A DNA stretch of 64,000 bases, from IMG/VR virus record IMGVR_UViG_3300050821_002540, positions 1 to 64,000 of that record; one strand, given 5' to 3'. Position 1 is the stretch's first letter, and each line of letters begins with the position of its first letter. Below are positions 850 to 62,895 of the stretch, in pieces. The notes under the pieces were generated by a model that was given only the letters and a program-made list of their open reading frames with translations, had not been told where the DNA came from and made no database searches. The stretch is from a virus. A program made the position numbers and the translations under genes.

Positions 850-1296
850 TCATGCAAAAAGCAGGCAGAAAATTGTCTGTATTTTCTCGCATGTACGGAC
901 GCGCAGGAGTGCACATAAGCGCAGGTCACCAACATCAAGGTCATCACCAGCATCAGCAGGCACATCCAGCTGCGCAGCATCAAACACAACATGAGGGTCC
1001 AGCCCACTCACATCCCGGTACCTCTCATAGCTATACTCCTCACATGCAGCACGCAACTGTACAAGAAGCACAGTAATGTCCACACACGTCGGCTGTGCTA
1101 TCTCCCCGTGCATCTTCCTCTCAGCAGCCAGCAGCTTATCAAAGGCATCAATCATCCTTGCCTCCTCACGCGAGTACGGGCCACGCCTCAGGTTTGTCCT
1201 TGGCCCACGCTTCTTCCTCACCCTCCCCTGTACCACATCCATGTACGTCTCGCCCTCATCATACGCATCCGCACCAGCACCCGCACTAGCAGTCAT
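850..1296 (-). CDS. Hypothetical protein; likely real end at in-frame TTA 916-918
   Basis: ATG at 1296 overlaps the upstream TGA (ATGA). Acidic C-terminus ...DDLDVGDLR is followed by TTA and a junk-like tail. Confidence 0.55.
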   Translation of the reverse strand: MTASAGAGADAYDEGETYMDVVQGRVRKKRGPRTNLRRGPYSREEARMIDAFDKLLAAERKMHGEIAQPTCVDITVLLVQLRAACEEYSYERYRDVSGLDPHVVFDAAQLDVPADAGDDLDVGDLRLCALLRVRTCEKIQTIFCLLFA

Positions 1297-11104: not shown

Positions 11105-11219
11105 GCCAGGAGCAGAAGAGACCAAGGACGGCAAGAAAGGTGAGAACAGCCCAGGTACCAAGCCGAAGGACCTGCCCCAGGTTCCACAGCCAAAGGGCAA
11201 GTTACGGGCGGAAAAATAA
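11094..11219 (+). CDS. Small basic peptide; in-frame TTA at 11202, four codons before TAA
   Basis: AGGAG RBS; manual translation. Confidence 0.4.
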   Translation: MGIRPGAEETKDGKKGENSPGTKPKDLPQVPQPKGKLRAEK

Positions 11220-13166: not shown

Positions 13167-13376
13167 ATGTACTGGCAGGTAAGGGCGAGCTTTGCCAATA
13201 GTGGCGGCATCATGACGTTTGGCCTGGAGGCAGACAATCGCATCGGGGCCGAGCTGCTAGCATTCGACAGGATGCCACCTGGCGTCTGTGTGCTTGACGT
13301 GACGGCGATAGATGCGACGAAACTCAGAGTAGCAAAAGTAGATAATGGCGACTCTGACCCGGTAGGCTTAGCGTAG
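13167..13376 (+). CDS. Hypothetical protein; in-frame TTA at 13368, one codon before TAG
   Basis: 69-aa ORF in an operon. Confidence 0.5.
   Translation: MYWQVRASFANSGGIMTFGLEADNRIGAELLAFDRMPPGVCVLDVTAIDATKLRVAKVDNGDSDPVGLA
13339..13368 (+). promoter_or_regulatory. Promoter TAGATA-N18-TAGGCT
   Basis: Variant consensus with a downstream GGAGGCGAG RBS. Confidence 0.55.
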
Positions 13377-16102: not shown

Positions 16103-16564
16103 ATGAAGTGTGGTAGCTGCAGGGACAGCCACAAGACTGTCGATGAGGTAAGAGACTGCTACAAGCAGAAGAACTTCGTGCCGCTCACGACTGTGCACGA
16201 TGGCAAGAACGGCCAGTATGAGCTGCTCCAGAAGCTCCTGGCTGAGCGCGACATGGCTCCGCTCCCTCCGTACGATCACGTCGCGAACACAATAAGCAAG
16301 AGCGACGCGGGTGAGGCAATCGCTCTCCTCATCGACAACGTGCCCAAGTCCGACGGCAAGTGCGATGACGACTGGGAGGGTGAGTTATGTCTGAGGGCAC
16401 TCTCAGGGAAAGGTACCTGGCCAGCCAGACAAAATACAACCGCAGCTACAAAGGGGCGGCTCGGTACAAGCGGTATGAGGCAAAGCATCCCGAGCGTGCT
16501 CAGGCATGGAGCGAGCTCATGCAGATCAAGGCGAGGCGGCGGTTATGCTTTATGTCGCATTTGA
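16103..16564 (+). CDS. Hypothetical protein (CGSC..H..VDEVRDC); likely real end at TTA 16385-16387
   Basis: GGAGGCGA RBS; sequence after TTA overlaps the next gene out of frame. Confidence 0.65.
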   Translation: MKCGSCRDSHKTVDEVRDCYKQKNFVPLTTVHDGKNGQYELLQKLLAERDMAPLPPYDHVANTISKSDAGEAIALLIDNVPKSDGKCDDDWEGELCLRALSGKGTWPARQNTTAATKGRLGTSGMRQSIPSVLRHGASSCRSRRGGGYALCRI

Positions 16565-16575
16565 ATGCGTCCTGA
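16387..16575 (+). CDS. Small basic protein (YNRSYKG...RYEAKHPER); likely real end at TTA 16543-16545
   Basis: GGAGGG RBS; its ATG overlaps the upstream TTA. Confidence 0.6.
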   Translation: MSEGTLRERYLASQTKYNRSYKGAARYKRYEAKHPERAQAWSELMQIKARRRLCFMSHLNAS

Positions 16576-16682
16576 TCATTATGACGGCGAATGAGCTTTG
16601 TGCGCCCTCATACATGGCCGAGTACACTGCAGCCAAGTTCGGTGTTGCAATGATACTCATCATGATCAGGGAGATGCAATGA
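16545..16682 (+). CDS. Small membrane peptide (MLYVAFECVLII...)
   Basis: ATG overlaps the upstream TTA; TGA overlaps the next ATG. Confidence 0.5.
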   Translation: MLYVAFECVLIIMTANELCAPSYMAEYTAAKFGVAMILIMIREMQ

Positions 16683-17889: not shown

Positions 17890-18696
17890 ATGAAGGACAA
17901 CGTATACATCGTGACGCGGGACCGGCTCGACAACCTGGAGAAGATCATACCACGCTGGCTGGAACAGTACTTCTATGTCACACTGGTAATCGAACATTCC
18001 GAGTACATGAAGCACGATGCCCTCATCCGTGGCATGGGCGTTTATGATGATATTGCAATAATCAGCCCAAAGGCGGAAAATAAGGGCATCGGTCATGCCC
18101 GGAAGTATGCAGTTACAAATGCCTGCCTTCGCGGGCTGCGGTCATTTATTATGTCTGATGATGATCTCCGTCCGCACAAGGACTCGGTGATGGCCGACCT
18201 GGTAAAAGAAGCTGAAAAGCCAAATGTCCTTGGCATCGGGGCGACAAGGCCGCTACATGACAGGTTCTCGCACAACATGACGAGGGACCGGGATGATGTC
18301 ATTATATGTCCTGGTGGCTGGGGCATGCAGGTCTTTGCGCTGAACGTCAGGAACACAGTCGATGTCGGCAACTTCAACCCTCGCCTTGACTGCTGGGGCG
18401 AGGATCACGAGCTGATGCGTGACGGGATTGTTTGTGGCTTCCCCTGGCTCGTACACTGTGGAGTGAAGTGTGAGCCTATCGGGGTGCGCTATGATCCTGG
18501 TGGCCTACACTCGTACATCGGCAAGGGTAACAGGTCAGAGCGCGAGTTGGAGTGTCGTAAGCTCATCTATGAGCGCTGGGGGAATTACGTAAGCAAGCCT
18601 GACAAGAGGCCGCGTACAGCATGGGCCAGAATGATGGATGAATACATTCCTAACTGGCGTAGCAAGTCAGCAATCCACGGCGGTGAATGGCAGTAG
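17890..18696 (+). CDS. GT-A glycosyltransferase, TAGT/GREB1/base-J glucosyltransferase-like (DNA base modification)
   Basis: VYIVTRDR, GIGHARKYA, MSDDD, GEDHEL, PGGL and C-terminal ERWG motifs. Confidence 0.7.
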   Translation: MKDNVYIVTRDRLDNLEKIIPRWLEQYFYVTLVIEHSEYMKHDALIRGMGVYDDIAIISPKAENKGIGHARKYAVTNACLRGLRSFIMSDDDLRPHKDSVMADLVKEAEKPNVLGIGATRPLHDRFSHNMTRDRDDVIICPGGWGMQVFALNVRNTVDVGNFNPRLDCWGEDHELMRDGIVCGFPWLVHCGVKCEPIGVRYDPGGLHSYIGKGNRSERELECRKLIYERWGNYVSKPDKRPRTAWARMMDEYIPNWRSKSAIHGGEWQ

Positions 18697-24892: not shown

Positions 24893-25729
24893 ATGCCACC
24901 AACACGCGGGGTACGAAAGCCACGACAGGCACGATCAGGCAATCAGGCCGAGAGCCCACTCGCCATAGATGCTGACGTTGTAGAAATCAAGATCGAGGAT
25001 ATTGCCAGCTTCAGGGAGAGCAAGAACATCTGCCTCTTTGGACCGTCGGGACACGGCAAGACGACCCTCGCGAGTGGCGCTCCAAGGTCAACATTCCTGA
25101 CAACAGAAAAGGGCCTGTCCTCAGCTCAGACCGCCGGGTCAAGGTCAGGTATTATGCGTGCCTATGACTGGGAGCATATAAAGGCCGGTCTAGACCTGGC
25201 TGACGAGAAGCTTGGCGAGGATGACTGGCTTATTGTAGACAGCGCCACAAAGATGCAGGTTCTCTACATGCGCTGGATCCTACGTATGCAGAACCAGGCT
25301 AACAGTAGCCGCAGTCTTGACATTCCTGCTCTCCAGGATCACCAGCAGTACCAGAATGGTTTTAAGCGCTTCATCGATCACATCATTGATGCCAAGTACA
25401 ACTCAATAGTCATCTTCGGAGAGATGGAGATCCCTGGTGAGGATGATGAGATGGAGCGCGTACCTCACATTGAGGGCGGCAAGACGTTCCAGGTATGCCG
25501 GTATGTCATAGGACAGTTTGACGTGGGCATCCGGTACTCCGTTAGCCGGAAGCTAAGCGGTCCAGGCGATACAAAGCGGATCGCCCTAACCCAGCCCACT
25601 GACCAGTACTGGGCCAAGGACCGATACAGTGCCCTCGGTGACTACCAGATAGTAGAGCCGGGTGAGTATGATGCCATGGCACAGTTCATCGAGATGATAT
25701 ATGAGTCACGAGGGGAGGTAGTCAAGTGA
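24893..25729 (+). CDS. AAA_24/Sak4-like RecA-fold ATPase (recombination)
   Basis: GPSGHGKTT, IVDSAT and AKDR; lies between the exonuclease and SSB. Confidence 0.85.
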   Translation: MPPTRGVRKPRQARSGNQAESPLAIDADVVEIKIEDIASFRESKNICLFGPSGHGKTTLASGAPRSTFLTTEKGLSSAQTAGSRSGIMRAYDWEHIKAGLDLADEKLGEDDWLIVDSATKMQVLYMRWILRMQNQANSSRSLDIPALQDHQQYQNGFKRFIDHIIDAKYNSIVIFGEMEIPGEDDEMERVPHIEGGKTFQVCRYVIGQFDVGIRYSVSRKLSGPGDTKRIALTQPTDQYWAKDRYSALGDYQIVEPGEYDAMAQFIEMIYESRGEVVK

Positions 25730-25892
25730 GGTATGACACGCTTATGCTGGCAATCGAACGTTTCCTTGACCGGAAGCAAGAACAGACCGGCGAGAAGTGC
25801 GAGAACCCAAAGTGCATGATATGTAATAGCACATATGCTAACCCGGCAGGGACAATGCACTGGTGGCCAGTAGGAAAGGTTAGGTCATACAT

Positions 25893-26105
25893 TTGACGCA
25901 CAGGTGTATGCTTGGATCGTGTGGATGGGCCAGTCCCGATGAGCCAGATCAGTTCTCGGGGTGTAGGGCAACCTGGCATATCTTCGAGGATCACCCAGAT
26001 GTTTGGCTCAGGACATTCGGTGACAGAAAGCCGGTGGACCCAGACCCACGCACCGATGAGGGCATGATGGCAATCAGGGTAAACATCATACTATCTGGAG
26101 GATAA
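25893..26105 (+). CDS. Small Cys/His protein
   Basis: C...C.W...WH...DHP; coupled. Confidence 0.5.
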   Translation: MTHRCMLGSCGWASPDEPDQFSGCRATWHIFEDHPDVWLRTFGDRKPVDPDPRTDEGMMAIRVNIILSGG

Positions 26106-26330
26106 GTGCCCCCTAGACGGCAGAAGCCCGAGTCCGGTAGGGTATCGATAGTCGATGCCGACACGATGCTCATGCAACAGTTTAGGCTCCACTGTCAGAA
26201 GCGCCACCCACAGATGAAGTTCTGGTCAATAGGCGAGCATATCGCAGACCACAGGCTTCATGATGACTCTCTTAACCATATCCACACCAAGGAAGCACCA
26301 ACAGAAGAGGAAGGCAGCACAGATGCCTAA
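26106..26330 (+). CDS. Small His-rich protein; paralog of 35590 gene
   Basis: DAD.M....F.LH...RH...H.RLH pattern shared with 35590-35808. Confidence 0.6.
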   Translation: MPPRRQKPESGRVSIVDADTMLMQQFRLHCQKRHPQMKFWSIGEHIADHRLHDDSLNHIHTKEAPTEEEGSTDA

Positions 26331-27147
26331 GCTCCGCAAGGAAGAGACAGAAGACATGGATGTAGCTGAGCTGGAGGCCGCTGAGTACAGCGACGAGCAG
26401 TTCAGCAAGTATGGCGGGGATGTCCCGCCGAACGACACGATCCTCAGGGCCAAGGTGTCCAAGATGTGGTGGTCCCGTACAAATGCAGGTGACCCCATGC
26501 TTGTCGCCCTCGTTGAGGCGGATGAGAATGAAGGTCTTCTCGGTGAGTACAACGGACTCCCCTGCTGGGAGCGGATGTCGCTAACTACAGGAGCCAAGTT
26601 CAAGTGGGCACCATTCCTGGAGCACTTCGGCCTCTCGATCAGGGACGTCAAGGGAAAGATCATCCTTGAATCTGATGAGGACGACAGCATTGGCGCCCCG
26701 ATCGTGAAGATCGACAAATTCGCACCAGGCTCGGAAGATGCATGGTGCCGGATTATCATCCAGCGCGAGAAGTACAATGACAACTGGCAGGCTCACGTAG
26801 CAGGCTGGCTCCCCTACGATGAGGATGAGGAGCCTCAGGATGCAGACGAGGAACTGGAAGATGAGGATGATGACCTGGAGGATGAGGATGATGCAGAGGA
26901 CGAGGAGGCTGAGGAGTCCGTCCCAGTGGTAGCGAAGCGGGGGAGGCAGCCCGCTAGGAGCGCTTCTAAGGCCGCCGCAGCCCCGGCCGCTACCCCTACC
27001 CGCGCGGCGGGTCGCAAGCCCGCTCCGGCCGCGTCCGCCCCGGCCAGGGCTAGGCAGTCCCGTACGGCTACCGCCGCGAAGCCCGCCCCGGCCCCTGCGC
27101 GGCGGGGACGCCGCCCCGCCACCGAGGACAATGAGCCTCCTTTCTAG
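26323..27147 (+). CDS. Single-stranded DNA-binding protein-like, with acidic and Ala/Pro/Arg tail
   Basis: Position after the Sak4-like ATPase; acidic tract; C-terminal EPPF. Confidence 0.7.
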   Translation: MPKLRKEETEDMDVAELEAAEYSDEQFSKYGGDVPPNDTILRAKVSKMWWSRTNAGDPMLVALVEADENEGLLGEYNGLPCWERMSLTTGAKFKWAPFLEHFGLSIRDVKGKIILESDEDDSIGAPIVKIDKFAPGSEDAWCRIIIQREKYNDNWQAHVAGWLPYDEDEEPQDADEELEDEDDDLEDEDDAEDEEAEESVPVVAKRGRQPARSASKAAAAPAATPTRAAGRKPAPAASAPARARQSRTATAAKPAPAPARRGRRPATEDNEPPF

Positions 27148-27319
27148 AACAGCCCTGGGGCCAGCTCATCAATGCCATCTTCGGTGAGTGTCTAGGCCAT
27201 ATCCAAGAAGCTGAGCAGGTCGGCCGCTGCGTCTACTGTAGACAATGCGGCCGACGGCTCTACCAGGGCACAAAAATGAACCCCATCGAGCTCTTCAATC
27301 TCAGGAAGGAATGGGGTAA

Positions 27320-27502
27320 GTGACTTACTTTGATGCTAAAGTTGAGCCTACAGATCACAGTAAGATCGGCGGGCACACCCTGATAATACATCATTACAAT
27401 CCGCAGCAAGGCCAGGCCTGGGTTGACCTCACAGACCACCAGCTCACTATGATAGCCCTGGCAATCCTAGGCCACCTAGCATCAGTCAAGGAGTTACGGT
27501 GA
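27320..27502 (+). CDS. Hypothetical protein; in-frame TTA at 27494, one codon before TGA
   Basis: 60-aa ORF coupled to the flavoprotein. Confidence 0.5.
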   Translation: MTYFDAKVEPTDHSKIGGHTLIIHHYNPQQGQAWVDLTDHQLTMIALAILGHLASVKELR

Positions 27503-28308
27503 AGGTAATCGTCATTGGGTGCGGACCCGCAGGACTCGCGGCTGCTCACGCTGCTGTAGGGCTGGGTGCAGAGGTACGTGTAATAGCACCAAAGAAGATG
27601 ACTCCGCAGAACGGTCCGGTAACGATACAGAATCCAATCCCTGGCATTTCAGTAGACCATCCTGACGGTTACATTCGCCAGCTAGTGGTCGGTGGCTCAA
27701 TACTTGACTACAGACTGAAATTGTATGGTGATGTTAACGTCAACATCAACGGTAACATCATGCGTCCCGGCTACGACGCATGGCAGGTCAGGGCTGCCTA
27801 CTACAAGATGTGGGACCTGTACTCCTGGATGGTCGAAGATGGAATGGTAGCGCCCGGAGACATTCAATGGCTAGTTCGTGATAGTGACCTGGTAGTCTGC
27901 TCAGCTCCAGCAAAAAGCCTGTGCTACCAGGATTGCGACAAGCTACTTGCCCGCGATCAGGAATGTCATGAGTTCCGGAGCGTGCCTATCGCCCTCAAGT
28001 TCAGCACAAGCTATCCGAACCAGCCGGAAAATACCGTAATATACAATGCCCGAAAGGATGAGCCATGGGTGAGGAGTAGCCTCATTTTTGGTGTGGGGGT
28101 AACCGACTACAAGGTTGAGGACTGTCCTAACCCTGACCTGATAATCCAGAAGCCACTAGGCACCGACTGTGACTGTCACCCAAAGGTGCTTCGGGTAGGC
28201 CGGTATGGCAAGTGGCACAACTTGTCATGGATCGACAGCGCATACTCAGAAACTCGCGAGTCTTTGTTGTCAATGATGCACCAGCAAGAATGGAGTTCTG
28301 TTGTCTAG
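27499..28308 (+). CDS. FAD-dependent oxidoreductase or mutase-like flavoprotein
   Basis: VIVIGCGPAGLAAA Rossmann motif; C-terminal VGRYGKW. Confidence 0.8.
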   Translation: MKVIVIGCGPAGLAAAHAAVGLGAEVRVIAPKKMTPQNGPVTIQNPIPGISVDHPDGYIRQLVVGGSILDYRLKLYGDVNVNINGNIMRPGYDAWQVRAAYYKMWDLYSWMVEDGMVAPGDIQWLVRDSDLVVCSAPAKSLCYQDCDKLLARDQECHEFRSVPIALKFSTSYPNQPENTVIYNARKDEPWVRSSLIFGVGVTDYKVEDCPNPDLIIQKPLGTDCDCHPKVLRVGRYGKWHNLSWIDSAYSETRESLLSMMHQQEWSSVV

Positions 28309-36217: not shown

Positions 36218-36994
36218 ATGGTTAGGAGCATTACCAGGGGCATTGTCCCTGCAGCGTGTATCCTGCTGCTTGCGTTCCTCAGTACATTCGCCGGAGTCCC
36301 GGCCAACGCAGCAAGAATTAGCCCCCAGCCTGTAACTCAGCAGAGGGCACTACGACTCGACATCCAGCGCATCACGGCGGACATCACCGCCCCGGACATC
36401 ATAGCGGCAGCCGCATCACGGCTCCTTGACGTCCAGCGCAAGTCGGCTCGTGCAGTCTCGACGGCAGCGTACACCGCTGCCCAGCTTAGCGCGTTCCATG
36501 CCTTCCACATGGGGCACCTCGCCCACCTAGCTCACGAGCGCGCCCGCAGGACACTCCTGCTGACATCGGCAGCCCAGAGCTCAGATAGCGAGGGCAGCGG
36601 CGACAGTGATGGCACCCCGGCCCCGGTCGTCAAGGCCCCTCCCGTATCACACGGTGATGGGGACAGCGACAGCGACGACGGTAGTTCCGCCCCGGTACCC
36701 ACAAGTAGCGACAGTGCGAGCCATAGTGCCCCTGTCAGCAATAGTGGCGGAGGGTACACTGTAGGAAGCTCATTCCAGGCGTGCGTGATCCGGGCCGAGT
36801 CCGGTGGTAACCCGAATATCTGGAATGCTTCTGGCCACTGGGGCCTGTACCAGTTCAGCGCGAGTACCTGGGCAATGCACGGCGGTGACCCGTCCCTCTT
36901 CGGGAACGCCTCAGCAGCCTACCAGACCCAGATCTTCTGGAACACGGTCAAGGCTGACGGAACCTCAGACTGGGCGCCGTACGATGGCTGCTAA
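36218..36994 (+). CDS. Secreted Rpf-like lytic transglycosylase
   Basis: Signal peptide (ANA site), Ser/Asp linker, C-terminal CVIRAESGGN...GLYQF..STW...GG...ASAAYQ...W....C. Confidence 0.8.
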   Translation: MVRSITRGIVPAACILLLAFLSTFAGVPANAARISPQPVTQQRALRLDIQRITADITAPDIIAAAASRLLDVQRKSARAVSTAAYTAAQLSAFHAFHMGHLAHLAHERARRTLLLTSAAQSSDSEGSGDSDGTPAPVVKAPPVSHGDGDSDSDDGSSAPVPTSSDSASHSAPVSNSGGGYTVGSSFQACVIRAESGGNPNIWNASGHWGLYQFSASTWAMHGGDPSLFGNASAAYQTQIFWNTVKADGTSDWAPYDGC

Positions 36995-37865
36995 GACAAT
37001 TGCGCTAATCCTCGCGCCACTAGCAGTCATCGCTGGCCTGTTCCTGGCGCCAGCTACTTCCGCACTCGCCTCGCCTGTTGTTCCGGCCACTGTGTCTGCC
37101 ATCCTCCCGGCTCCGCACGGCCTACATGTAACCCATCTTAGTGTGGGCCGGGCCGATCTAGCCTGGGATGCAGTACCGGGTGCTCGGGTGTATGAGCTAC
37201 GCATCGAGGGTGCCACACAATATGACCATGTACTCAGGCCAGGGCAGCGGTCGGCCTATGCACTACTCAGGCCGGGTAGGTACTGGGCGAATGTACGGGC
37301 CGGTAGCTCGTCACGTGATGTTCACGGACACTGGTCCACAACAATTCACTTCACGATGCCTAGCGCCTGTTCACGAGCATGCCGTGCCGTACACTACGCA
37401 TATGACCAGATCGGATGCCCGTACGTGTACGGCGCGACTGGCCCGTGCGGCAATGGCTTCGACTGTTCCGGCCTGGTAATGTCTGCCTGGTATTACGCTG
37501 GCGTGTCCCTCCCCCGCACTACATGGAGTATGTGGGCTGGCCTCCAGCATATCTCGCGAAGTTCTCTCCAGCCTGGAGACCTAGTGTTTGGTAATGGCTT
37601 CGGCCATGTGATGATCTACGTAGGCAGCGGCTACGTCATCCAGGCGGAACATACCGGAACCAACATCATGAAGTCCTCCCTGTCGTACGTCGGCACCATA
37701 GATGGATATGCGAGGGTGTTATGCGGACATACATGGAAGACTGCAGAGACTGTGGTGGAGCAGGACTGCAGCCGGGGGCATCAGGAATGGTGCCATGCCA
37801 GACGTGCCACGGCGTACCCAGGCCGACGAAAGCCTAGCTTTCAGCCGCCCGGTAGGGTAGGCTAG
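36984..37865 (+). CDS. Secreted FN3 + NlpC/P60 peptidoglycan hydrolase; likely real end at TTA 37719-37721
   Basis: Signal peptide, FN3-like segment, PYVYG..GP..FDCSGL, LPRT, PGDLVF, HV.IYVG; domain ends GYARV. Confidence 0.85.
   Translation: MAAKTIALILAPLAVIAGLFLAPATSALASPVVPATVSAILPAPHGLHVTHLSVGRADLAWDAVPGARVYELRIEGATQYDHVLRPGQRSAYALLRPGRYWANVRAGSSSRDVHGHWSTTIHFTMPSACSRACRAVHYAYDQIGCPYVYGATGPCGNGFDCSGLVMSAWYYAGVSLPRTTWSMWAGLQHISRSSLQPGDLVFGNGFGHVMIYVGSGYVIQAEHTGTNIMKSSLSYVGTIDGYARVLCGHTWKTAETVVEQDCSRGHQEWCHARRATAYPGRRKPSFQPPGRVG
37721..37837 (+). CDS. Small DnaJ-type zinc-finger peptide (CRDCGGAG...CQTCHG)
   Basis: Manual translation; GAGGG RBS; ATG overlaps the upstream TTA. Confidence 0.6.
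   Translation: MRTYMEDCRDCGGAGLQPGASGMVPCQTCHGVPRPTKA
37835..37863 (+). promoter_or_regulatory. Promoter TAGCTT-N17-TAGGCT
   Basis: Repeated consensus. Confidence 0.75.
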
Positions 37866-37917
37866 AAGCCTAGGGTACGAAACGTCCAGTCGCCTAGATG
37901 GAACGGAGGTGAGTTGC

Positions 37918-38019
37918 ATGAACAAGGGAGGAACGCTTCACGCAGAGGCGCACGGCCCGTCGCACGGAGTCACGGAGTTCCCGTGGATCACTCTGGTCGA
38001 GGGCGAGCTGCCCAAGTAA
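37918..38019 (+). CDS. 33-aa peptide
   Basis: GGAGGTGA RBS directly after the promoter. Confidence 0.45.
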   Translation: MNKGGTLHAEAHGPSHGVTEFPWITLVEGELPK

Positions 38020-38349
38020 AGTAACAAACTGTCCGGCGCCATCAACTACAACCATAATTAAATACTGGGGTTCCAGGCGAGCCAGGACTGGATGTAAAAT
38101 ACAGTGGCTTAATACCGTGCCCCTTCAAAATTAAATAACCGGCGGCCGATCCTCAGTGAGTTAGAGGTGGATACACCGTTTCACCGGGAGTAGAACTGGA
38201 GAGCTACTCAGTCCGGAAGCAGAGTGAGGATGGACGGGCCACCCGCCGCCGTCGGGGCCAGGTAAAGCACTACCTGGCCCCCGGCCCCAGGGAGTGCGTG
38301 AGACTCCCTGGGGCCTAAGCCCCCAGGAGGAACAAAGCCTCCTGGGGGC
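38020..38349 (+). ncRNA. Putative structured non-coding RNA ending in three tandem hairpins
   Basis: No credible ORF; stems ATCCTCA/TGAGGAT and GAGTAG/CTACTC; three perfect 11-13 bp hairpins at 38254-38349. Confidence 0.4.
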
Positions 38350-38371
38350 CTCTCCATTTACAGGAGGAATC

Positions 38372-38560
38372 ATGATGACAAACGGTGCTCTCATTGAAGA
38401 GCTCAAGAAGCGTAATCCAATGGGTAACGCTCAGATCTTCATCAGGGGCTTTGATCCTGATGGCAACTCAGCCTACTTCGAGATAACAAATGTAAATGGG
38501 TTCATTGATGGCCCGGATACTGTCATTGAGGCAGGCGAGGTTATCTGCACCGGCCCCTAG
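38372..38560 (+). CDS. Small hypothetical protein
   Basis: AGGAGG RBS. Confidence 0.6.
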   Translation: MMTNGALIEELKKRNPMGNAQIFIRGFDPDGNSAYFEITNVNGFIDGPDTVIEAGEVICTGP

Positions 38561-38609: not shown

Positions 38610-38873
38610 ATGAAGAAGTCAGAGCTGAAGAGGAAGCTTCGCCAGGTGCAATGGCAGCTCGAGGAACTACAAACCAGGAATCAGGTAGTGAAGAGGGCAG
38701 CACTCAGGGAGCGAATCATCCAGCTACTGAATGATGCCAAGCTCAATACCAACGACGAGACAAAGCTGTGCCAGCTTCAGTGCGAGATCGACAATCTTGC
38801 CGAGGGACGATGGGATGGCCCGGTACCGGCAGATCACCCGGACATAATGGGAGGCGAGAATGAAAGACAATGA
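38610..38873 (+). CDS. Coiled-coil hypothetical protein
   Basis: GGAGGCGAG RBS. Confidence 0.65.
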   Translation: MKKSELKRKLRQVQWQLEELQTRNQVVKRAALRERIIQLLNDAKLNTNDETKLCQLQCEIDNLAEGRWDGPVPADHPDIMGGENERQ

Positions 38874-39471
38874 TAGAGAGCCCAAGGTCGCAGAATGCGC
38901 CGACCAGCTCACACACAAGACTAATGCCATAGCCCACCTAATCGGTGAAGGCTATCAGTACAAGGATCGTGAATGGCTGACCGAGGCACTAGGCCTGATC
39001 CCAATACTAATCACAGACGCAAGAGAGCTCAGCGAGATGCTCGATGACGTCATCTACGGCGACATGCTGGAGGCGAAGAAAGTGAAGAACAAGCGCAAGA
39101 AGAGGACACGCAAGATGGAGGCAAGGCTCAGGGGATGCCTAGCAGTCATCGCGACGGGATCCACTGACAGGACCGAGAGGTACAGGCTCATAGCCGAGCT
39201 GGAAGACCTGGATGGCGACATTACGAATGGCACCAGTCACTGGAATGGTGTGCGCTTCGACTTCCCTCCGGACGACTGGGACCGCCAGGCCGACTGGTCC
39301 GCTACAATCAATGAGGCGACGGCTAGCCAGCTCGTAAACCTCACCGGTGAGTACATTGACACCTGCTCGGTATGTGGCATGGATGTTCCCGGCCCGCACC
39401 CACCAGTAGGCACTCCGCAAGCCAATACTCCGCACTACGTCGGCCCTCTTACAGTGAAGGACATCTTATAG
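38860..39471 (+). CDS. Hypothetical protein ending TTA TAG
   Basis: GGAGGCGAG RBS; last gene of the plus-strand arm. Confidence 0.65.
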   Translation: MKDNDREPKVAECADQLTHKTNAIAHLIGEGYQYKDREWLTEALGLIPILITDARELSEMLDDVIYGDMLEAKKVKNKRKKRTRKMEARLRGCLAVIATGSTDRTERYRLIAELEDLDGDITNGTSHWNGVRFDFPPDDWDRQADWSATINEATASQLVNLTGEYIDTCSVCGMDVPGPHPPVGTPQANTPHYVGPLTVKDIL

Positions 39472-50537: not shown

Positions 50538-53500
50538 TACTTGTTCCTACTTCCGAATGCCCTCTGTACGCTTCCGCCACCCTTATACCTAACAAAGTTT
50601 CTTATGAACTCGGCCATAAACTTCTCAAACTCGCTACTCCCGCCAACAACTTCAAATGTACCTCCGCCACTACCAGGACCAGAGTCGCGAGTTAGGTGCT
50701 CATACCCTCCGGTACCATTCATCATAATGTTAAGGCCAGGCTTGAGCCACCCGCCATTATCATACCAGTTCATAGCAGCCTCGTGCGCCGCCGCCCCGAT
50801 CGGGCCTCCATAAGTGGATGCCATATAGTTCCACATCCAGGCTATCTGTGTACGAGGGTCGGACTGTCCACCTGCCCATGCAGGCCAGGCAGCTACTGGC
50901 ATCTTGGAGAACGGGAGGGCCTGCGGAATACCATACGCCCCGGATGACGGGTTGGTGGCGAACTGGTTCCATCCAGACTCACGCATGGCCACATAGTTCC
51001 ATGCATTCCATACCGGACCTGATGCGTACTGCGGGTACATTGACTGTGCTAGGCGCGCGTTCTGATTCGGGGCCGCCGCTGGCGGGCCGCCGACAGTAGG
51101 ACCAGTAACCTGCTTTGTCGCAACCAGAGTGTTTGCGTATGACACAGCATCCTGGAGGAACTGACCGGCTGCGGAATTCCCAAATGACGGCCATGCACTA
51201 TTAATGAATGAGCTCTCATTATTTCCGGCCCAGTCAGTAAGACCGCTCATACCACCGATAACTCCGCCACTCGCGAAGCCGGGCACCCCCATCTGCTTGA
51301 ACAGCCATGCATACTTCTTTGTCTTGTCCTTATCAATAACGGCCTCACCACGCTCAAGCATAGCGGGCCATTCATCCCCTCCACCAAAGCCAGGTACCTT
51401 ACCGCCTCCTGAGTAGAAGCTCAGGGCACCAAGCTTCTTCAGAACTGAGCCAAGACTCTCGCGAGCCTGGACGGTACCGGAGCCGCTGGCATGAACACCT
51501 ACATTGACCGTCTTGCCATGTAGCCTATCGACCGAACCTTGAAGATTGTTGACAAAGTTCTTTGCATCAGTAGCTGAAAGCCCTGTCTTCTCAAGATCCG
51601 CTATCAGCTGATCACGAGCCGACTTAAAGGCATTGCTATTTATGCCCTGATGGATAATTGCATCCGTCATATTGCTTATGGCTGTCTGTGCTCCGGATGC
51701 CTTAAACAATGACGCCTGGAACGCTGCAACAAGATCGTTGTTAAGTACTCCAGCCAGGCCACCGACCTTAATCGTTGACTTATCGACAATAGCATTCATC
51801 CCTGTCAGGGACGTACCGTTCTGTCCCACCCACTTGTTTAGATTCTGAAGACTTACGGTACCGGGACCGAGAGCATTATTGATGAATGCAATAATGGTGT
51901 CCCTGGCGGTGAGGTTGCTGCCAGCATACGTCAGCATCTCTGCAGACTGGGTGGCAATTACGGTCGTTAGGTCCTTCTGACTTATTCCCTGCTGCGTAAG
52001 CGAGTCGGAAAGCTTCTGTGCTGCAGGTATAACTGTCGTGTATAGGTCACTGGCAAGCGTTAGGCTCTGTGAGTTGAATCCAGTCAGTGATGCACCGGAT
52101 ACCTGAGCATCCTTACCCATTTGCAGAATACCCTGCTGGAATGAGATGAATGCCTGCTGACCGCCAAGCAGCACATTTATGAGGTTGTCTTCGGCCGTAG
52201 TTACGTTCTGGAGGGCAGGAAGAGTCTCCTGCATAAATTCATTACGCTGGGCATTGGCAGCAGCAGCCTGTCGCCCAGTACCGATCGCGAGGGCGTTCTG
52301 GGCATCCGCCGCTGCCTTGGCCTGAATGATAAGGCCAGGTAGTGTCTGCGCAGTAGCGTTCAGGATGTCATTGGATGTTATGCCGGCAGCAGCTAGGAGC
52401 GAAGTGTTACCGCCCGCCGCCTTCAGTACCTGGCTGTAATTGCTCATGTCCTTCTGAAGGACAGGAAGGAGAGCATGGTTGTCATTGAGGACGGTGCCAA
52501 GCCTCTGTGCATTTGCCACGTAGGTGAATGTACCGATAAGCTCCTTAGCTTGCGCTACGGTTAGCTGGCCGTGACTTGCTGCCGCCTCCTTTACGGCAGC
52601 CGCCTGGTCATTAAGTGTCTTGACGTACGTACCGCCACCAACATCAAGAGCATTTTGCGCTGAATTTACTGCTGCTACAGCATCCCTGTACTGAATTAGG
52701 AGGTTGATACCAAGCTGATTTACAGGAACCTGTCCAAGGAACTTCTGTGTAGCAGTGACCATTTCATTAGTGGCATCCTTGCTCCTTACAAGCCAGTAAA
52801 CAAGAGCACCGATACCGGCTGCGGCAAGGGCCGCCCACCCAACAATACTAAGTGCACTTATTGAGGTGAATGCCCCTTCAAGTGCCCAGCTCGAAGCTGC
52901 GGCATAGTCGGCTGCGGCACCAAGAGTGAACAGCACACGGATAAGCTGAACAACACCCTGTCCGATCATCTGAAGGCCGGTAAAGAACTGTGCTGCATCA
53001 AATAGGAGGAAGTTAGCATTTACAAGGCCAAGCGGGATGAGGAGCCTAGCGAATGCGTTTGTTGTGTACAGAACTGCGCTTGCCGCGAGTCCGAGCCATA
53101 GTGCGGCGCCATGGAAAACAAGGAAGCCGTTAAGTATGTCCTGGAATATATGACTTGCACTTAGCGCCTCAAGTGCACCAGTAACGCCAACTACAGCATG
53201 AAGAAGGATCTGTGCATATCCAGGAACAACCTTCAGCAAGTTGCCTACGGTGCCAAAGATGTTAGCGACTACCTCGCCAATCATGGCAACGTCCTTTGGA
53301 CCATCCTTGAGGAATGTCCCAAGTCCGCCACTAACAAGGGCACTCGTTGCCCTAGCCCCGAGGATTTCCAGCTGCCGTCCGGTTGCATCAATGATCGGCG
53401 GGAGCTTGCCGGTATTAGCGCCAACAACAGCAAGAGCATCACCAAATAGCTGGATGGTATACGGCTTTGCTGCATCCTCAAGCTTGTGCATGCCATCGGT

Positions 53501-54559
53501 TAGCGGGTAGACGCTCTGCCCAAAAGCAGTAGTGTCATTGAATGCGGTGCGCATTGCCCTTGATATGTCATTTACCGTTGGTGCGGCACCAAGACCGAAC
53601 GCAGCTAGCGCAACCGTAGCGGGAACAATGACAGCAACGAATTCAGCAACGGTGTCAGCAAGAACGTGCCATGCAGCTACCTGGCCAATTAGCGGAAGCC
53701 TGCCAAGAGCACCACCAAACAGGGTTACCTTTGCTGTAGCCGCAGCACCCCAGAAACCGAACTGAGCAAGCCACCCAGTTCCTGCCTCGAAGAGTGGGAT
53801 CTGATCCCTTATGACCGCATTGTTTGCGATAGCACCAGCTACAGCATCAGCAAATGCTGTCCTGGCGAGTCCGCCATACCTCGCAGCCGCAGTACCGATA
53901 GCGCCCCAGAACCCATAAGTCATCGAGGCAACTCCGGCAAAGCCTCCCATAACCTGCCAGAGCCGGACGATATCATCGTGCGTCATTCCAAAGGCAGAGT
54001 GAAGCTTATAGGAGTCAGCAACTAGGGCATCCATAGCGGCCGTAGTACCACTGCTAATGCCGACATTGAACTTCTGGTCTAGGCCGCTGCCAATCCCTCC
54101 CGTTGGCGTCCCGTAGCTTACAGGAATAACCTCGCTCTGGACTACATGGGGAAGCTTCAGTGGTGCTACATCAAAGCTTACCGGAATCTCTGCACTCAGG
54201 CTGGAGATCTTCTCCATCTGGGTCGCGAGCTGTTCCGGATTAACGTTGATGTCAAGAAGGTCGGAAATACCCTGCTGCTGTATAAGCCTCTTTAGCAACA
54301 TTAGCTGGGTGGTAATCCGGCCGGGGGATATATTGACATCAGCAAGGTCGGCAATTCCCAGGGCCTGTAGCTTTGCCTTGAGCATTGACAACGCAGACAT
54401 CATCTTGTTGGTGTCAATAGAGATCCCGCCGATGTTCTGGAAGTCCTTGCCTAGATCCTTAGCTACCTTCCTGAGTGCCTCCATCTTCAGTAGTGCTGAT
54501 GCGAAGGATGGCCCGGTGAGATCCTTTGCGGTAATCGTGATATTTACTTCATTCGCCAT
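50537..54559 (-). CDS. Tape measure protein with C-terminal lytic transglycosylase-like motif
   Basis: MANEVNITITAKD start; Ala/Leu-rich helices; RESGWN..ATNPSSGAYGIPQALP; WYDNGG. Confidence 0.9.
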   Translation of the reverse strand: MANEVNITITAKDLTGPSFASALLKMEALRKVAKDLGKDFQNIGGISIDTNKMMSALSMLKAKLQALGIADLADVNISPGRITTQLMLLKRLIQQQGISDLLDINVNPEQLATQMEKISSLSAEIPVSFDVAPLKLPHVVQSEVIPVSYGTPTGGIGSGLDQKFNVGISSGTTAAMDALVADSYKLHSAFGMTHDDIVRLWQVMGGFAGVASMTYGFWGAIGTAAARYGGLARTAFADAVAGAIANNAVIRDQIPLFEAGTGWLAQFGFWGAAATAKVTLFGGALGRLPLIGQVAAWHVLADTVAEFVAVIVPATVALAAFGLGAAPTVNDISRAMRTAFNDTTAFGQSVYPLTDGMHKLEDAAKPYTIQLFGDALAVVGANTGKLPPIIDATGRQLEILGARATSALVSGGLGTFLKDGPKDVAMIGEVVANIFGTVGNLLKVVPGYAQILLHAVVGVTGALEALSASHIFQDILNGFLVFHGAALWLGLAASAVLYTTNAFARLLIPLGLVNANFLLFDAAQFFTGLQMIGQGVVQLIRVLFTLGAAADYAAASSWALEGAFTSISALSIVGWAALAAAGIGALVYWLVRSKDATNEMVTATQKFLGQVPVNQLGINLLIQYRDAVAAVNSAQNALDVGGGTYVKTLNDQAAAVKEAAASHGQLTVAQAKELIGTFTYVANAQRLGTVLNDNHALLPVLQKDMSNYSQVLKAAGGNTSLLAAAGITSNDILNATAQTLPGLIIQAKAAADAQNALAIGTGRQAAAANAQRNEFMQETLPALQNVTTAEDNLINVLLGGQQAFISFQQGILQMGKDAQVSGASLTGFNSQSLTLASDLYTTVIPAAQKLSDSLTQQGISQKDLTTVIATQSAEMLTYAGSNLTARDTIIAFINNALGPGTVSLQNLNKWVGQNGTSLTGMNAIVDKSTIKVGGLAGVLNNDLVAAFQASLFKASGAQTAISNMTDAIIHQGINSNAFKSARDQLIADLEKTGLSATDAKNFVNNLQGSVDRLHGKTVNVGVHASGSGTVQARESLGSVLKKLGALSFYSGGGKVPGFGGGDEWPAMLERGEAVIDKDKTKKYAWLFKQMGVPGFASGGVIGGMSGLTDWAGNNESSFINSAWPSFGNSAAGQFLQDAVSYANTLVATKQVTGPTVGGPPAAAPNQNARLAQSMYPQYASGPVWNAWNYVAMRESGWNQFATNPSSGAYGIPQALPFSKMPVAAWPAWAGGQSDPRTQIAWMWNYMASTYGGPIGAAAHEAAMNWYDNGGWLKPGLNIMMNGTGGYEHLTRDSGPGSGGGTFEVVGGSSEFEKFMAEFIRNFVRYKGGGSVQRAFGSRNK

Positions 54560-55150: not shown

Positions 55151-55567
55151 TTATGCCCAGGTGGGAACGGTACCGTCCGCGAGCGAGCCTGGCACCTGCC
55201 AGGTCAGCTCTGCGGTATTGGCACGTGTGATCTGGTAGTCGGTAATGAGGCAGTTGACGGTGATGATCGGCGTAGTAGTGACAGGGGTAGGGGCGATGGA
55301 CACCGAGCGGGTAACCGAGGTGCCAGTAACAGTCGAGAAAACCGAGTGGCTGAGGTTGGCGCCGTTGTCGAAGATGCCGTTGAGGGTAACGGTGAAGTCC
55401 GTGAGTAGCAGAAGCCGCTCATTCGCGAACTTGTTCATGCCGGTCGTGTCCTCAAGACCACGTGGCGTAGTGAAGGTGTAGTTGGTGATGTCTGTGCCGA
55501 TGTTCTGTAGCGTTGCACTTGCATCCGCCACCTGTAGTGTGCCCGAGAGTCCGGTGAGCTTAGGCAT
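55151..55567 (-). CDS. Major tail (tube) protein
   Basis: EDTTG...ERLLLL.D...W..PGSLADGTVPTW; position before the chaperone. Confidence 0.75.
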   Translation of the reverse strand: MPKLTGLSGTLQVADASATLQNIGTDITNYTFTTPRGLEDTTGMNKFANERLLLLTDFTVTLNGIFDNGANLSHSVFSTVTGTSVTRSVSIAPTPVTTTPIITVNCLITDYQITRANTAELTWQVPGSLADGTVPTWA

Positions 55568-55568
55568 C

Positions 55569-56033
55569 TCAGCCCCTTCCAACTATTGTTGCTATCTTGT
55601 CCTGATGGTTCCTGCTGTCATCCACCCAGTCATCTACCCTGCTGTGGATTCTTACTTCCCTGCGCGGGTTGCCACGCCAGTCACCGCCTACCACGAGAAG
55701 CCGTGGAGGCTTGCCGATCGGCACCCTGTGCTCGTCACTCTTAAAGCACCTGTTTCCAGGCCCATAGATGAACTGGATTAGCTCCATACTTATCCGGTTA
55801 GTTGCGTAGGCCCTCGACTTGTCATGAGTCAGGTAGTGGTACTGCTTCTGGCCCAGTTTCGATGTAAGGTCTACCGTAGTCACGAAGCCCTTGAGGTAAC
55901 CATCACACTCATACTCTTCGCACGTGGCCCTGCGCCAGTGCGTAACGAGCGGGGCACGCATCGAATAGCTCTTGTAGTACTGTGGGCCAGCGACCGGCTG
56001 AATCCTGCCATTACTGAGAAGTGCGCCACGCAT
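55569..56033 (-). CDS. Tail-region protein (ATCEEYEC...CF..H)
   Basis: Coupled ORF in the tail operon. Confidence 0.65.
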   Translation of the reverse strand: MRGALLSNGRIQPVAGPQYYKSYSMRAPLVTHWRRATCEEYECDGYLKGFVTTVDLTSKLGQKQYHYLTHDKSRAYATNRISMELIQFIYGPGNRCFKSDEHRVPIGKPPRLLVVGGDWRGNPRREVRIHSRVDDWVDDSRNHQDKIATIVGRG

Positions 56034-56986
56034 CAGAACGACACCCCAGCAGTCAGGTTCTGTACGAATGTAACCGCGAAGATTGCCTGTGTGAACGTCC
56101 CGGCCGAGACTATCTTGAGGAACTCGTTCACGGTGGCTGTGTTAGCTGTCTGTACACGGTACCCGCCGATAGCTGTCTGACTACCGAAGTCAAGGAGGGT
56201 TGTGTATGAACCTCCTGATGTCGTAGCGTGAGTTACAGTGATATCGATGTTTGTCCCCACTAGCTCTACAATCTGCAGGTACGCCTGACACCCGAACGCA
56301 GTACCTGCACCCTGGTCATAGAACGCACCAGTCGTCGGGCCATTGTCAGTCCTGAGCCCTGCTGTTACCTGACGTCCCCACTCAACACCGAATGCATTAG
56401 CCGCCCAGTCAGCCTTTATGGTGAGGTTCCCGGTATTGTCGCGGTTGGGAGCATAACTGCTTTCCTTAGCAATCATACACGCCGAAGGATTCCCTAGCGC
56501 ATTGCCCTGAAGGTACGAAACGACAACGTCAGCCGACGGCATATTCGCGAGGGCGTTTTGTACTGTTCCGAGCGCGAACCAGTTCCAGGTAGGAGCTGAT
56601 GAGTATGTGATCGAGATCGTTCCGCTGATTGGTACAGAGTACGTACCGGCAGTAGTACCGACCGACACACTGTTAACGAGCACGTTGGTGATAGTACCGC
56701 CAGTGATAGTCACCTTGATCGGGAAGCCGGTCGTATTGGTGACAGGAACGGTAGTAAGCGGTACGCCAGGAGTCGTGATGGTTGGCGTTACCTCAAAGAA
56801 TGAGGTAGCGCTAATCTGTCCATCACGCTGACCATACAGACGAGAGTGCCCCTTCTGTGTAAGAGTGGTAACGTCAAGCAGTGCGATAGCCCCGCTGATC
56901 GTATCGACCGATGCGATGTCGCCGCTCAGGTCGTACCCGCCGACGTAGAAGTTGTCTCCTAGTCCACTTGTCTTATTAGCCACCAT
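56033..56986 (-). CDS. Tail-tube-like structural protein with inserted beta domain
   Basis: YVGGYDLSGD...LDVT...RL.G.RDG. Confidence 0.65.
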   Translation of the reverse strand: MVANKTSGLGDNFYVGGYDLSGDIASVDTISGAIALLDVTTLTQKGHSRLYGQRDGQISATSFFEVTPTITTPGVPLTTVPVTNTTGFPIKVTITGGTITNVLVNSVSVGTTAGTYSVPISGTISITYSSAPTWNWFALGTVQNALANMPSADVVVSYLQGNALGNPSACMIAKESSYAPNRDNTGNLTIKADWAANAFGVEWGRQVTAGLRTDNGPTTGAFYDQGAGTAFGCQAYLQIVELVGTNIDITVTHATTSGGSYTTLLDFGSQTAIGGYRVQTANTATVNEFLKIVSAGTFTQAIFAVTFVQNLTAGVSF

Positions 56987-62598: not shown

Positions 62599-62895
62599 TT
62601 AATGCCCGGCCCCTACCTGTAAAGCCGGGGCGGGTGCCGCAGGCTTTGGCGCGAATGATGCCTGGATCGACATGCTCAGGAAGCCAGCCGACCCTACACC
62701 CCCATCCGAGTGTCCGCTGACGCCGACCGTATACCGGACATTATGCGTTGCATCCGGCTCGGTCTGGTCCTCAGTAACCACGGTGGTGGCAAAGTCCCTG
62801 GCAAGATCGCCAAGACTATTGCCATTGGTCTGGGCACTCGCGAGTGCTGCAAGGGTCTCGCCCCTGTCACCGGCGGCCGTGAATGAGAAGCTCAC
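62599..62895 (-). CDS. Small protein; likely real end at TTA 62620-62622
   Basis: MSFSF.AAG...SGH; TTA is followed by a hairpin at 62586-62613. Confidence 0.6.
   Translation of the reverse strand: MSFSFTAAGDRGETLAALASAQTNGNSLGDLARDFATTVVTEDQTEPDATHNVRYTVGVSGHSDGGVGSAGFLSMSIQASFAPKPAAPAPALQVGAGH

Follow-up and report, generated by a model that had tools for sequence, protein, structure and literature searches.

An in-frame TTA at the family stop position of a phage NlpC/P60 gene suggests that UUA may act as a translation stop signal

Where does the cell-wall endopeptidase gene at 36984..37721 of this phage genome end? The window analysed here spans 64,000 nucleotides at the start of an IMG/VR phage record that is 73,693 bp long and has a G+C content of 56%. 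On its plus strand, the frame that opens with the ATG at 36984 reads ...GTIDGYARV up to a GTG codon at 37716-37718 and then meets an in-frame TTA (codon 246, 37719-37721). Under table 11 this TTA is a leucine codon and the frame continues through a tail at 37722..37865 (plus strand), made of 47 codons and a TAG at 37863-37865, so that the product has 293 aa instead of the 245 aa obtained if the TTA ends the gene. The earlier note had described the same junction, with the A of the TTA opening a 38-aa CxxCxGxG ORF, and this can indeed be read off the sequence. Its figure of 48 residues appended by the standard code is also right when the leucine of the TTA is counted with the 47 residues behind it. 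The proposal examined here is that the TTA is the terminator and that the tail would remain untranslated in the NlpC/P60 frame.

The protein starts with a signal peptide, continues with a middle part that appears FN3-like in our reading of its sequence, and carries the NlpC/P60 domain behind it. Residues 144-234 match Pfam PF00877 over profile positions 1-92 of 105, with an E-value of 2e-18 and 66.7 bits against a cut-off of 23. In the alignment with homologues, D160-C161-S162-G163 and H208 are invariant, and the domain match together with the invariant catalytic pair C161 and H208 identifies the product as an NlpC/P60 peptidase. The start of the gene is overlapped by 11 nt by an Rpf-like/SLT transglycosylase gene (window positions 36218-36994), whose product has a low-complexity linker rich in Ser and Asp.

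A search of 5.8 billion proteins with the 293-aa product returned 4,182 matches, none of which covers the tail (query coverage of at most 78%). We aligned nine homologues, namely five phage-like proteins (P0002-P0005 and P0029) and four cellular proteins of the Trebonia/Streptosporangiaceae type. The phage-like relatives are about 45-67% identical to the phage protein (66% for P0002 and 51-55% for P0003-P0005). All nine end at the column of the TTA, with ...GYAR[AV], ...AARP, ...AAEP or ...FYRV, and the tail is absent from the alignment of these nine. The stop of the NlpC/P60 family therefore belongs exactly where the phage has TTA. Aligning the homologue ends was the check put forward in the earlier note, and it came out as foreseen there, every homologue stopping at the TTA column; the (A/G)R(R/V)-like C-terminus that the note attributed to the family also holds, given the ...AR[AVP] or ...YRV ends of the nine proteins. 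Loci homologous to this gene were found in no viral contig and only as two distant cases, with 44-48% identity, in metagenomes, and the gene was not found in five long relatives of the phage.

The second half of the junction is the ORF that begins inside the TTA. This 38-aa ORF, MRTYMEDCRDCGGAGLQPGASGMVPCQTCHGVPRPTKA, occupies 37721..37837 on the plus strand, from the ATG at 37721-37723, which shares its A with the TTA at 37719-37721, to a TAG at 37835-37837. It encodes a putative small zinc-finger protein, an assignment based on its CxxCxGxG and CxxCxG motifs. Its match to the Pfam DnaJ_CXXCXGXG family is weak and below the cut-off (E 0.0027), and an exhaustive search found no orthologue, only weak matches to repetitive CxxCxGxG proteins. 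At 37712..37716 (plus strand), inside the upstream gene, a GAGGG that may be Shine-Dalgarno-like lies 4 nt before the ATG, a short spacing. The site thus combines a one-base stop/start geometry and a GAGGG with a downstream ORF that is itself putative; at other TTATG sites, in families of the relatives and at a 104-aa gene described below, the downstream genes are conserved. A promoter beneath the tail, also claimed by the earlier note, did not emerge from a sigma-70 scan of 37500-38400.

The codon score of the tail (37722..37865) in the NlpC/P60 frame is -0.19, and over 37721-37865 the phage codon score gives no choice between the two frames, this 61% G+C segment being poor in every frame. 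The transglycosylase and NlpC/P60 genes both lie in such a 61% G+C segment, and its poor scores in the phage codon model suggest that they were recently acquired from a host.

Within this genome, TTA is by far the rarest sense codon of the long ORFs, with 11 occurrences in 14,490 codons. The next rarest codons in the same set are TTG (35), CAA (40), AGA (44) and AAA (50), and other codons ending in A or T are common (CTA 154, ATA 171, GTA 284, CTT 307). The 16 longest genes, about 13,400 codons, hold no TTA at all and use CTA, ATA, GTA and CTT commonly. Long ORFs that do bear TTA were considered as genes and rejected as spurious; their codon scores are negative, they match neither Pfam nor PHROG, and one is antisense to the terminase gene. 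This last frame, of 583 aa, lies opposite the large terminase gene at 68642-70393 of G000 (this genome) on the plus strand (L003 8642-10393), and greedy picking of ORFs prefers it to the real gene.

The credible genes contain 12 in-frame TTAs, which fall into two groups of six: TTATG sites with an ORF starting at that ATG, and TTAs followed by a standard stop 0-7 codons on. The TTATG sites are at 16385, 16543, 37719, (-)918, (-)67735 and (-)67553. At 16385..16389 on the plus strand, the gene 16103-16384 (...DDDWEGE) ends and an ORF starts at 16387 (MSEGTLRERYL...) behind a GGGAGGG ribosome-binding site; the frame past this TTA has a codon score of about -0.3 for 58 codons (-0.39 and -0.23). 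The ORF 16387-16542 ends in turn at a second TTATG (16543..16547, plus strand), where a 45-aa hydrophobic ORF (16545-16682) begins, itself ending in a normal ATGA overlap. On the minus strand, the TTATG at 914..918 closes a 136-aa ORF (1326-919) with a score of +0.28 upstream and about 0 over a 21-codon tail, a weak case, as the ORF after the junction has only 28 codons. The second group includes, on the plus strand, TTAs at 11202..11204 (4 codons before a standard stop), 13368..13370 (1 codon before TAG), 27494..27496 (1 codon before a TGA that lies inside a GTGA overlap) and 39466..39468 (directly followed by TAG, at the end of the 203-aa ORF 38860-39471) and, on the minus strand, one at 62620..62622, 6 codons before the standard stop of a 98-aa ORF. 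Since a standard stop follows within 7 codons, these six terminal TTAs do not discriminate between the readings of the codon.

Two of these sites call for a remark. No database homologue was found for the gene at 16103. Its 94-aa CxxC protein corresponds to the N-terminal domain of two-domain proteins of 257 and 263 aa in the relatives G004 and G001, whose second domain (...TGNNDxDFF...KRVxGGH...NCxKCNxHLTKYASR) is missing from this genome. The G004 homologue aligns weakly beyond the TTA at 16385 (4 of 12 residues), which is weak counter-evidence, and in our reading this stretch may be a remnant of the deleted second domain. Beyond the window, on the minus strand, G000 67553-67531 holds three in-frame TTATG within seven codons (TTATGGTTATGGAGTACTTTATG). 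They look like tandem TTA terminators, each overlapped by an in-frame ATG of the ORF that follows, and they lie shortly before the portal gene.

Using the portal protein of the phage (65779-67212, minus strand, identified by Pfam), we retrieved 50 related IMG/VR loci from many metagenomes, with portals mostly 60-79% identical and a few more distant. Together with this genome they contain 783 credible ORFs and 173,550 codons, in which 86 in-frame TTAs occur, most of them either ahead of the true start or at the ORF end. That the apparent 5' TTAs lie upstream of true starts follows from homologues that begin after them. No close relative was found among cultured phages by blastn or tblastn.

For a quantitative comparison, this phage and four long relatives of 70-95 kb (G001-G004) were scored with one self-trained codon model per genome, over 125,318 codons in all. 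TTA occurs in frame 57 times in these five genomes, nearly always at an ORF end or ahead of a true start, compared to 1,451 occurrences of CTA, 1,623 of ATA and 355 of TTG. Nearly half of the TTAs (47%) lie at most 20 codons from a standard stop, against 10-21% for control codons. Over the next up to 60 codons, the mean codon score is -0.10 after TTA and +0.25 to +0.30 after the controls CTA, TTG, ATA, CAA, AAA and AGA (Mann-Whitney p from 1e-10 to 1e-13). The two bases that follow TTA are TG in 39% of cases, against 4-6% for the controls (p 2e-9). The tails behind TTA contain 3 further TTAs in 266 codons, which is the non-coding rate (p 3e-4); whatever keeps TTA out of translated sequence therefore does not act on them. 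As a control of the method, a distant contig (L053; portal 35% identical, 51% G+C) has TTA throughout a 418-aa ORF. An interior TTA aligned with leucine, of the kind that bldA-type regulatory use would give, was not found in the ORFs of the clade, and the few TTAs of G003 that lie mid-ORF are in ORFs without homologues.

The position of TTA relative to the ends of homologous proteins can also be followed in families other than NlpC/P60. The gene for the probable capsid protein (367 aa in this phage) ends with ...RVI-TGA here, with ...RVI-TTA-TG in the related locus L006 and, at the site of the L006 TTA, with ...RVI-TAA-TG in L011, and 17 of 17 homologues stop at this site. The probable capsid gene of L026/G004, only 49% identical to that of L006, also has TTATG at the consensus stop, shared by 20 of 21 homologues. 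In the large terminase family, 27 of 36 relatives stop where the genes of L015/G001 and L043/G002 have ...RSFIA-TTA-TG. In the present genome, the 104-aa gene at 68047-67736 on the minus strand ends with ...AVSD-TTA-TG, and its relatives have ...KVS[DE]-TAA-TG or -TGA-TG. A 124-aa gene of G001 likewise has TTA at its consensus stop. As a control, we collected every ORF that reads on past a stop position common to its homologues. Where 17 or more homologues support the position and the read-on is 7 codons or longer, TTA is the only codon that occurs at the consensus stop; the remaining read-ons are length variations of 1-5 residues and three weak cases with 3 homologues each. TTA outside the TG context is represented by two orthologous genes that are 60% identical, G003 26595-27527 and G004 55336-56223, in which it is kept in the same C-terminal column; their other relatives end within 3 residues of this column or are unalignable there.

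The immediate context of these TTAs is strongly biased. Although T[AG]ATG makes up only 14% of the standard stops, the homology-anchored TTA ends are all TTATG. In this genome, TTATG represents 9.2% of all TTA and 6 of the 12 in-frame TTAs of credible genes (p 3e-4). An excess of TTATG is partly expected, because TAG needs more than one step to become TTA and because the corresponding change in an ATGA overlap destroys the next start. A context-free stop codon does not explain the preference; one idea is that it comes from a need for U at position +4.

Which molecules could read or release UUA? No tRNA-Leu(UAA) was found in the five genomes or among the 50 loci, and a search of all frames of the five genomes gave neither an RF-1/GGQ nor a peptidyl-tRNA hydrolase domain. 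As the phages encode neither a reader nor a releaser of UUA, termination at this codon must rest on the host. The phages do have tRNAs that could help with codons rarely used by a high-G+C host. Those carried by this phage are Gln-UUG, which reads CAA, and Ile-GAU. The relatives have one or two CAT-anticodon tRNA genes each (G001 25115-26289, G002 52377-54197, G003 18078-18153). The corresponding CAU-anticodon tRNAs may read ATA, and the heavy use of ATA in these phages suggests that some of them may be tRNA-Ile2 rather than tRNA-Met. A tRNA called by ARAGORN at G004 51179-51257 has a four-base anticodon (gccc) and no assigned identity, and is possibly frameshift-suppressor-like.

The host is probably an actinomycete, judging from the affinities of a few proteins. 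The cellular proteins nearest to the NlpC/P60 protein are those of Trebonia and of Streptosporangiaceae MAGs, an Rpf-type transglycosylase gene adjoins the NlpC/P60 gene, and the nearest portal of a cultured phage is that of Streptomyces phage Dagobah (39.5% identity). TTA is missing from the CDSs of the Dagobah genome (69% G+C), but CTA and ATA are nearly absent as well. A prophage search gave a single genome match, a 6.5-kb contig in a Planctomycetota MAG whose RF1 and RF2 motifs are normal (PxT, SPF); this contig is probably a binning error and thus uninformative for the host.

Taken together, these observations suggest that in this phage and its host UUA probably ends translation, so that the NlpC/P60 protein would end at Val245 and TTATG would form a one-base stop/start overlap. 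The earlier note's central claim, a TTA stop that overlaps the next start, is thus supported by the ends of the homologues, the exclusion of TTA across the clade, four further families and the loss of coding signal. At the NlpC/P60 junction, TTATG would hand ribosomes over to the small zinc-finger ORF in the way that TAATG or TGATG would. The host would have no working tRNA-Leu(UAA), and one of its class-I release factors would read U-U-A; by analogy with organelles, an RF2 whose SPF motif has a changed serine is a candidate. TTA would then close about 10% of the genes of this phage (11-12 of about 120). A more specific version, in which UUA is a true fourth stop of a soil actinomycete lineage or another uncultured host and its phages, read by an RF2-type factor after the loss of tRNA-Leu(UAA), is a tentative proposal to which we give slightly less than an even chance. 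Such a fourth stop would be visible mainly in phages, as their lower G+C content lets TTA arise, and together with the loss of the tRNA it would explain everything except the TTATG preference.

The effects seen here could also arise if UUA were hungry or unassigned in an actinomycete host, the bldA-type tRNA being absent or uncharged during vegetative growth. Ribosomes would stall at the codon, and release of the peptide would be left to a rescue factor or to slow near-cognate events; the tail would be added only when the tRNA is present. The TTATG junction would then be conditional and would also block or time initiation at the downstream start. An actinomycete is the likely host, and the UUA tRNA of Streptomyces is non-functional early, with pausing ribosomes and a UUA in the uORF of adpA (PMC10732093). 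Some actinomycete genera also show a weak enrichment of UUA at 3' ends (PMC13072593), and the preference for sites that overlap a start is better accounted for by a conditional stall than by a plain stop. However, in the relatives TTA ends such genes as those for the large terminase and the probable capsid protein, whose products are needed in high yield, and a stall that does enough harm to keep TTA out of 125,000 interior codons would be equally costly at the last codon unless release were fast. For these two reasons we prefer a true stop over a hungry codon. Rescue by tmRNA would, moreover, tag the proteins for degradation, and the phages encode no rescue factor. We therefore regard a conditional stall as unlikely.

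The other explanations appear considerably less probable than a stall. UUA could be an ordinary, very rare leucine codon that replaced TAA or TGA by stop loss, leaving the protein with 48 extra, functionless residues whose codons overlap the small ORF. A single base change indeed turns TAATG or TGATG into TTATG, L011 has TAATG where L006 has TTATG, and the table 11 frame is open to 37865. Such losses would nevertheless have had to yield TTA only, since no TCA, CAA, GGA, TGG or other codon occurs at a well-supported stop followed by a long tail; they would also have arisen separately in five or more families and in several genomes, and the tails lack coding signal and contain further TTAs, which makes stop loss improbable. 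A frameshift or bypass at a hungry UUA, as proposed for the terminase of phage Hau3, would instead fuse the NlpC/P60 protein to the zinc-finger ORF, the ATG of which is in the -1 frame of the hydrolase gene. Bypassing triggered by UUA was put forward for a Streptomyces phage and in part tested there (PMC10732093). None of the junctions, however, has a slippery heptamer or a matching landing codon, the RNA structure is not notable (z -0.96), and the homologues simply end at the TTA, with nothing that resumes or needs rejoining behind it. We consider such recoding somewhat less credible still than stop loss. An error of sequencing or assembly at base 37720 would involve only one base of a metagenome assembly, but the 293-aa product is on record from 2 contigs and the pattern is seen again at 11 other sites of this genome and, in independent metagenomes, on dozens of contigs, so that an error is the least probable explanation.

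The mitochondrial code of Thraustochytrium is NCBI table 23. UUA is a stop codon in the mitochondria of labyrinthuleans (Thraustochytrium) and in peDinoflagellate plastids, and where it terminates, the organellar RF2 has lost the conserved Ser204 and the tRNA has been lost (PMC12574857). In labyrinthulean mtRF2a and peDinoflagellate pRF2, Ala, Gly or Cys replaces this serine of the SPF motif. The phage codon resembles the organellar one in being absent from the interiors of coding sequences and present only where homologues have their stops, and comparison with homologues, by which the organelle authors set 3'-end codons, gives the same result here. In contrast to the organelles, which have a few dozen genes and in which the Ser204 substitution of RF2 can be seen, the present case is that of a tailed phage with no release factor in hand, in which TAA, TAG and TGA all stay in use.

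In its geometry, TTATG is comparable to the TAATG and TGATG overlaps that couple genes, with a shared A and a Shine-Dalgarno-like element inside the upstream gene. The same junctions of the relatives read TAATG or TGATG; TTATG differs from them in that the standard code counts its proposed stop among the sense codons. Contrary to this clade, some phages read TAG or TGA as an amino acid. Both would depart from table 11, but the change proposed here runs in the opposite direction, and no phage-encoded suppressor tRNA or release factor accompanies it. In Streptomyces, the sole UUA tRNA is not functional in vegetative growth, ribosomes pause at UUA, and the upstream ORF of adpA has a UUA 5-6 nt before the main start (PMC10732093). 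UUA is enriched there at the 5' ends of genes (PMC13072593). The likely actinomycete host, the special status of UUA and its location beside a start codon are thus common to bldA control and to the phage. However, UUA still means leucine and is 5'-enriched in Streptomyces, whereas in the phages it aligns with stops at the 3' ends of genes, structural genes included.

The literature that we searched contains no report of a sense-to-stop change of UUA in bacteria or phages. If the proposed stop is real, it would provide the first case outside organelles of a sense codon turned into a stop. Table 11 calls would then be wrong for about 1 in 10 genes of the clade, adding false tails and masking or merging small downstream genes, and the host would be predicted to lack tRNA-Leu(UAA) and to have an RF2 in which the SPF serine is altered. 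To our knowledge, code-inference tools that use amino-acid alignments are not built for a sense-to-stop change, and such codes may be widely overlooked.

A separate feature of this genome concerns the ends of the record. The 73,693-bp record has a 97-bp terminal repeat. The intervals 1-250 and G000 73251-73500 contain only 1 and 2 CA+TG dinucleotides, respectively, compared to a genome median of 37 per 250 bp. This zone free of CA/TG is contiguous across the record ends, includes the 97-bp terminal repeat and holds GCGTCGAAGCCGACC repeats.
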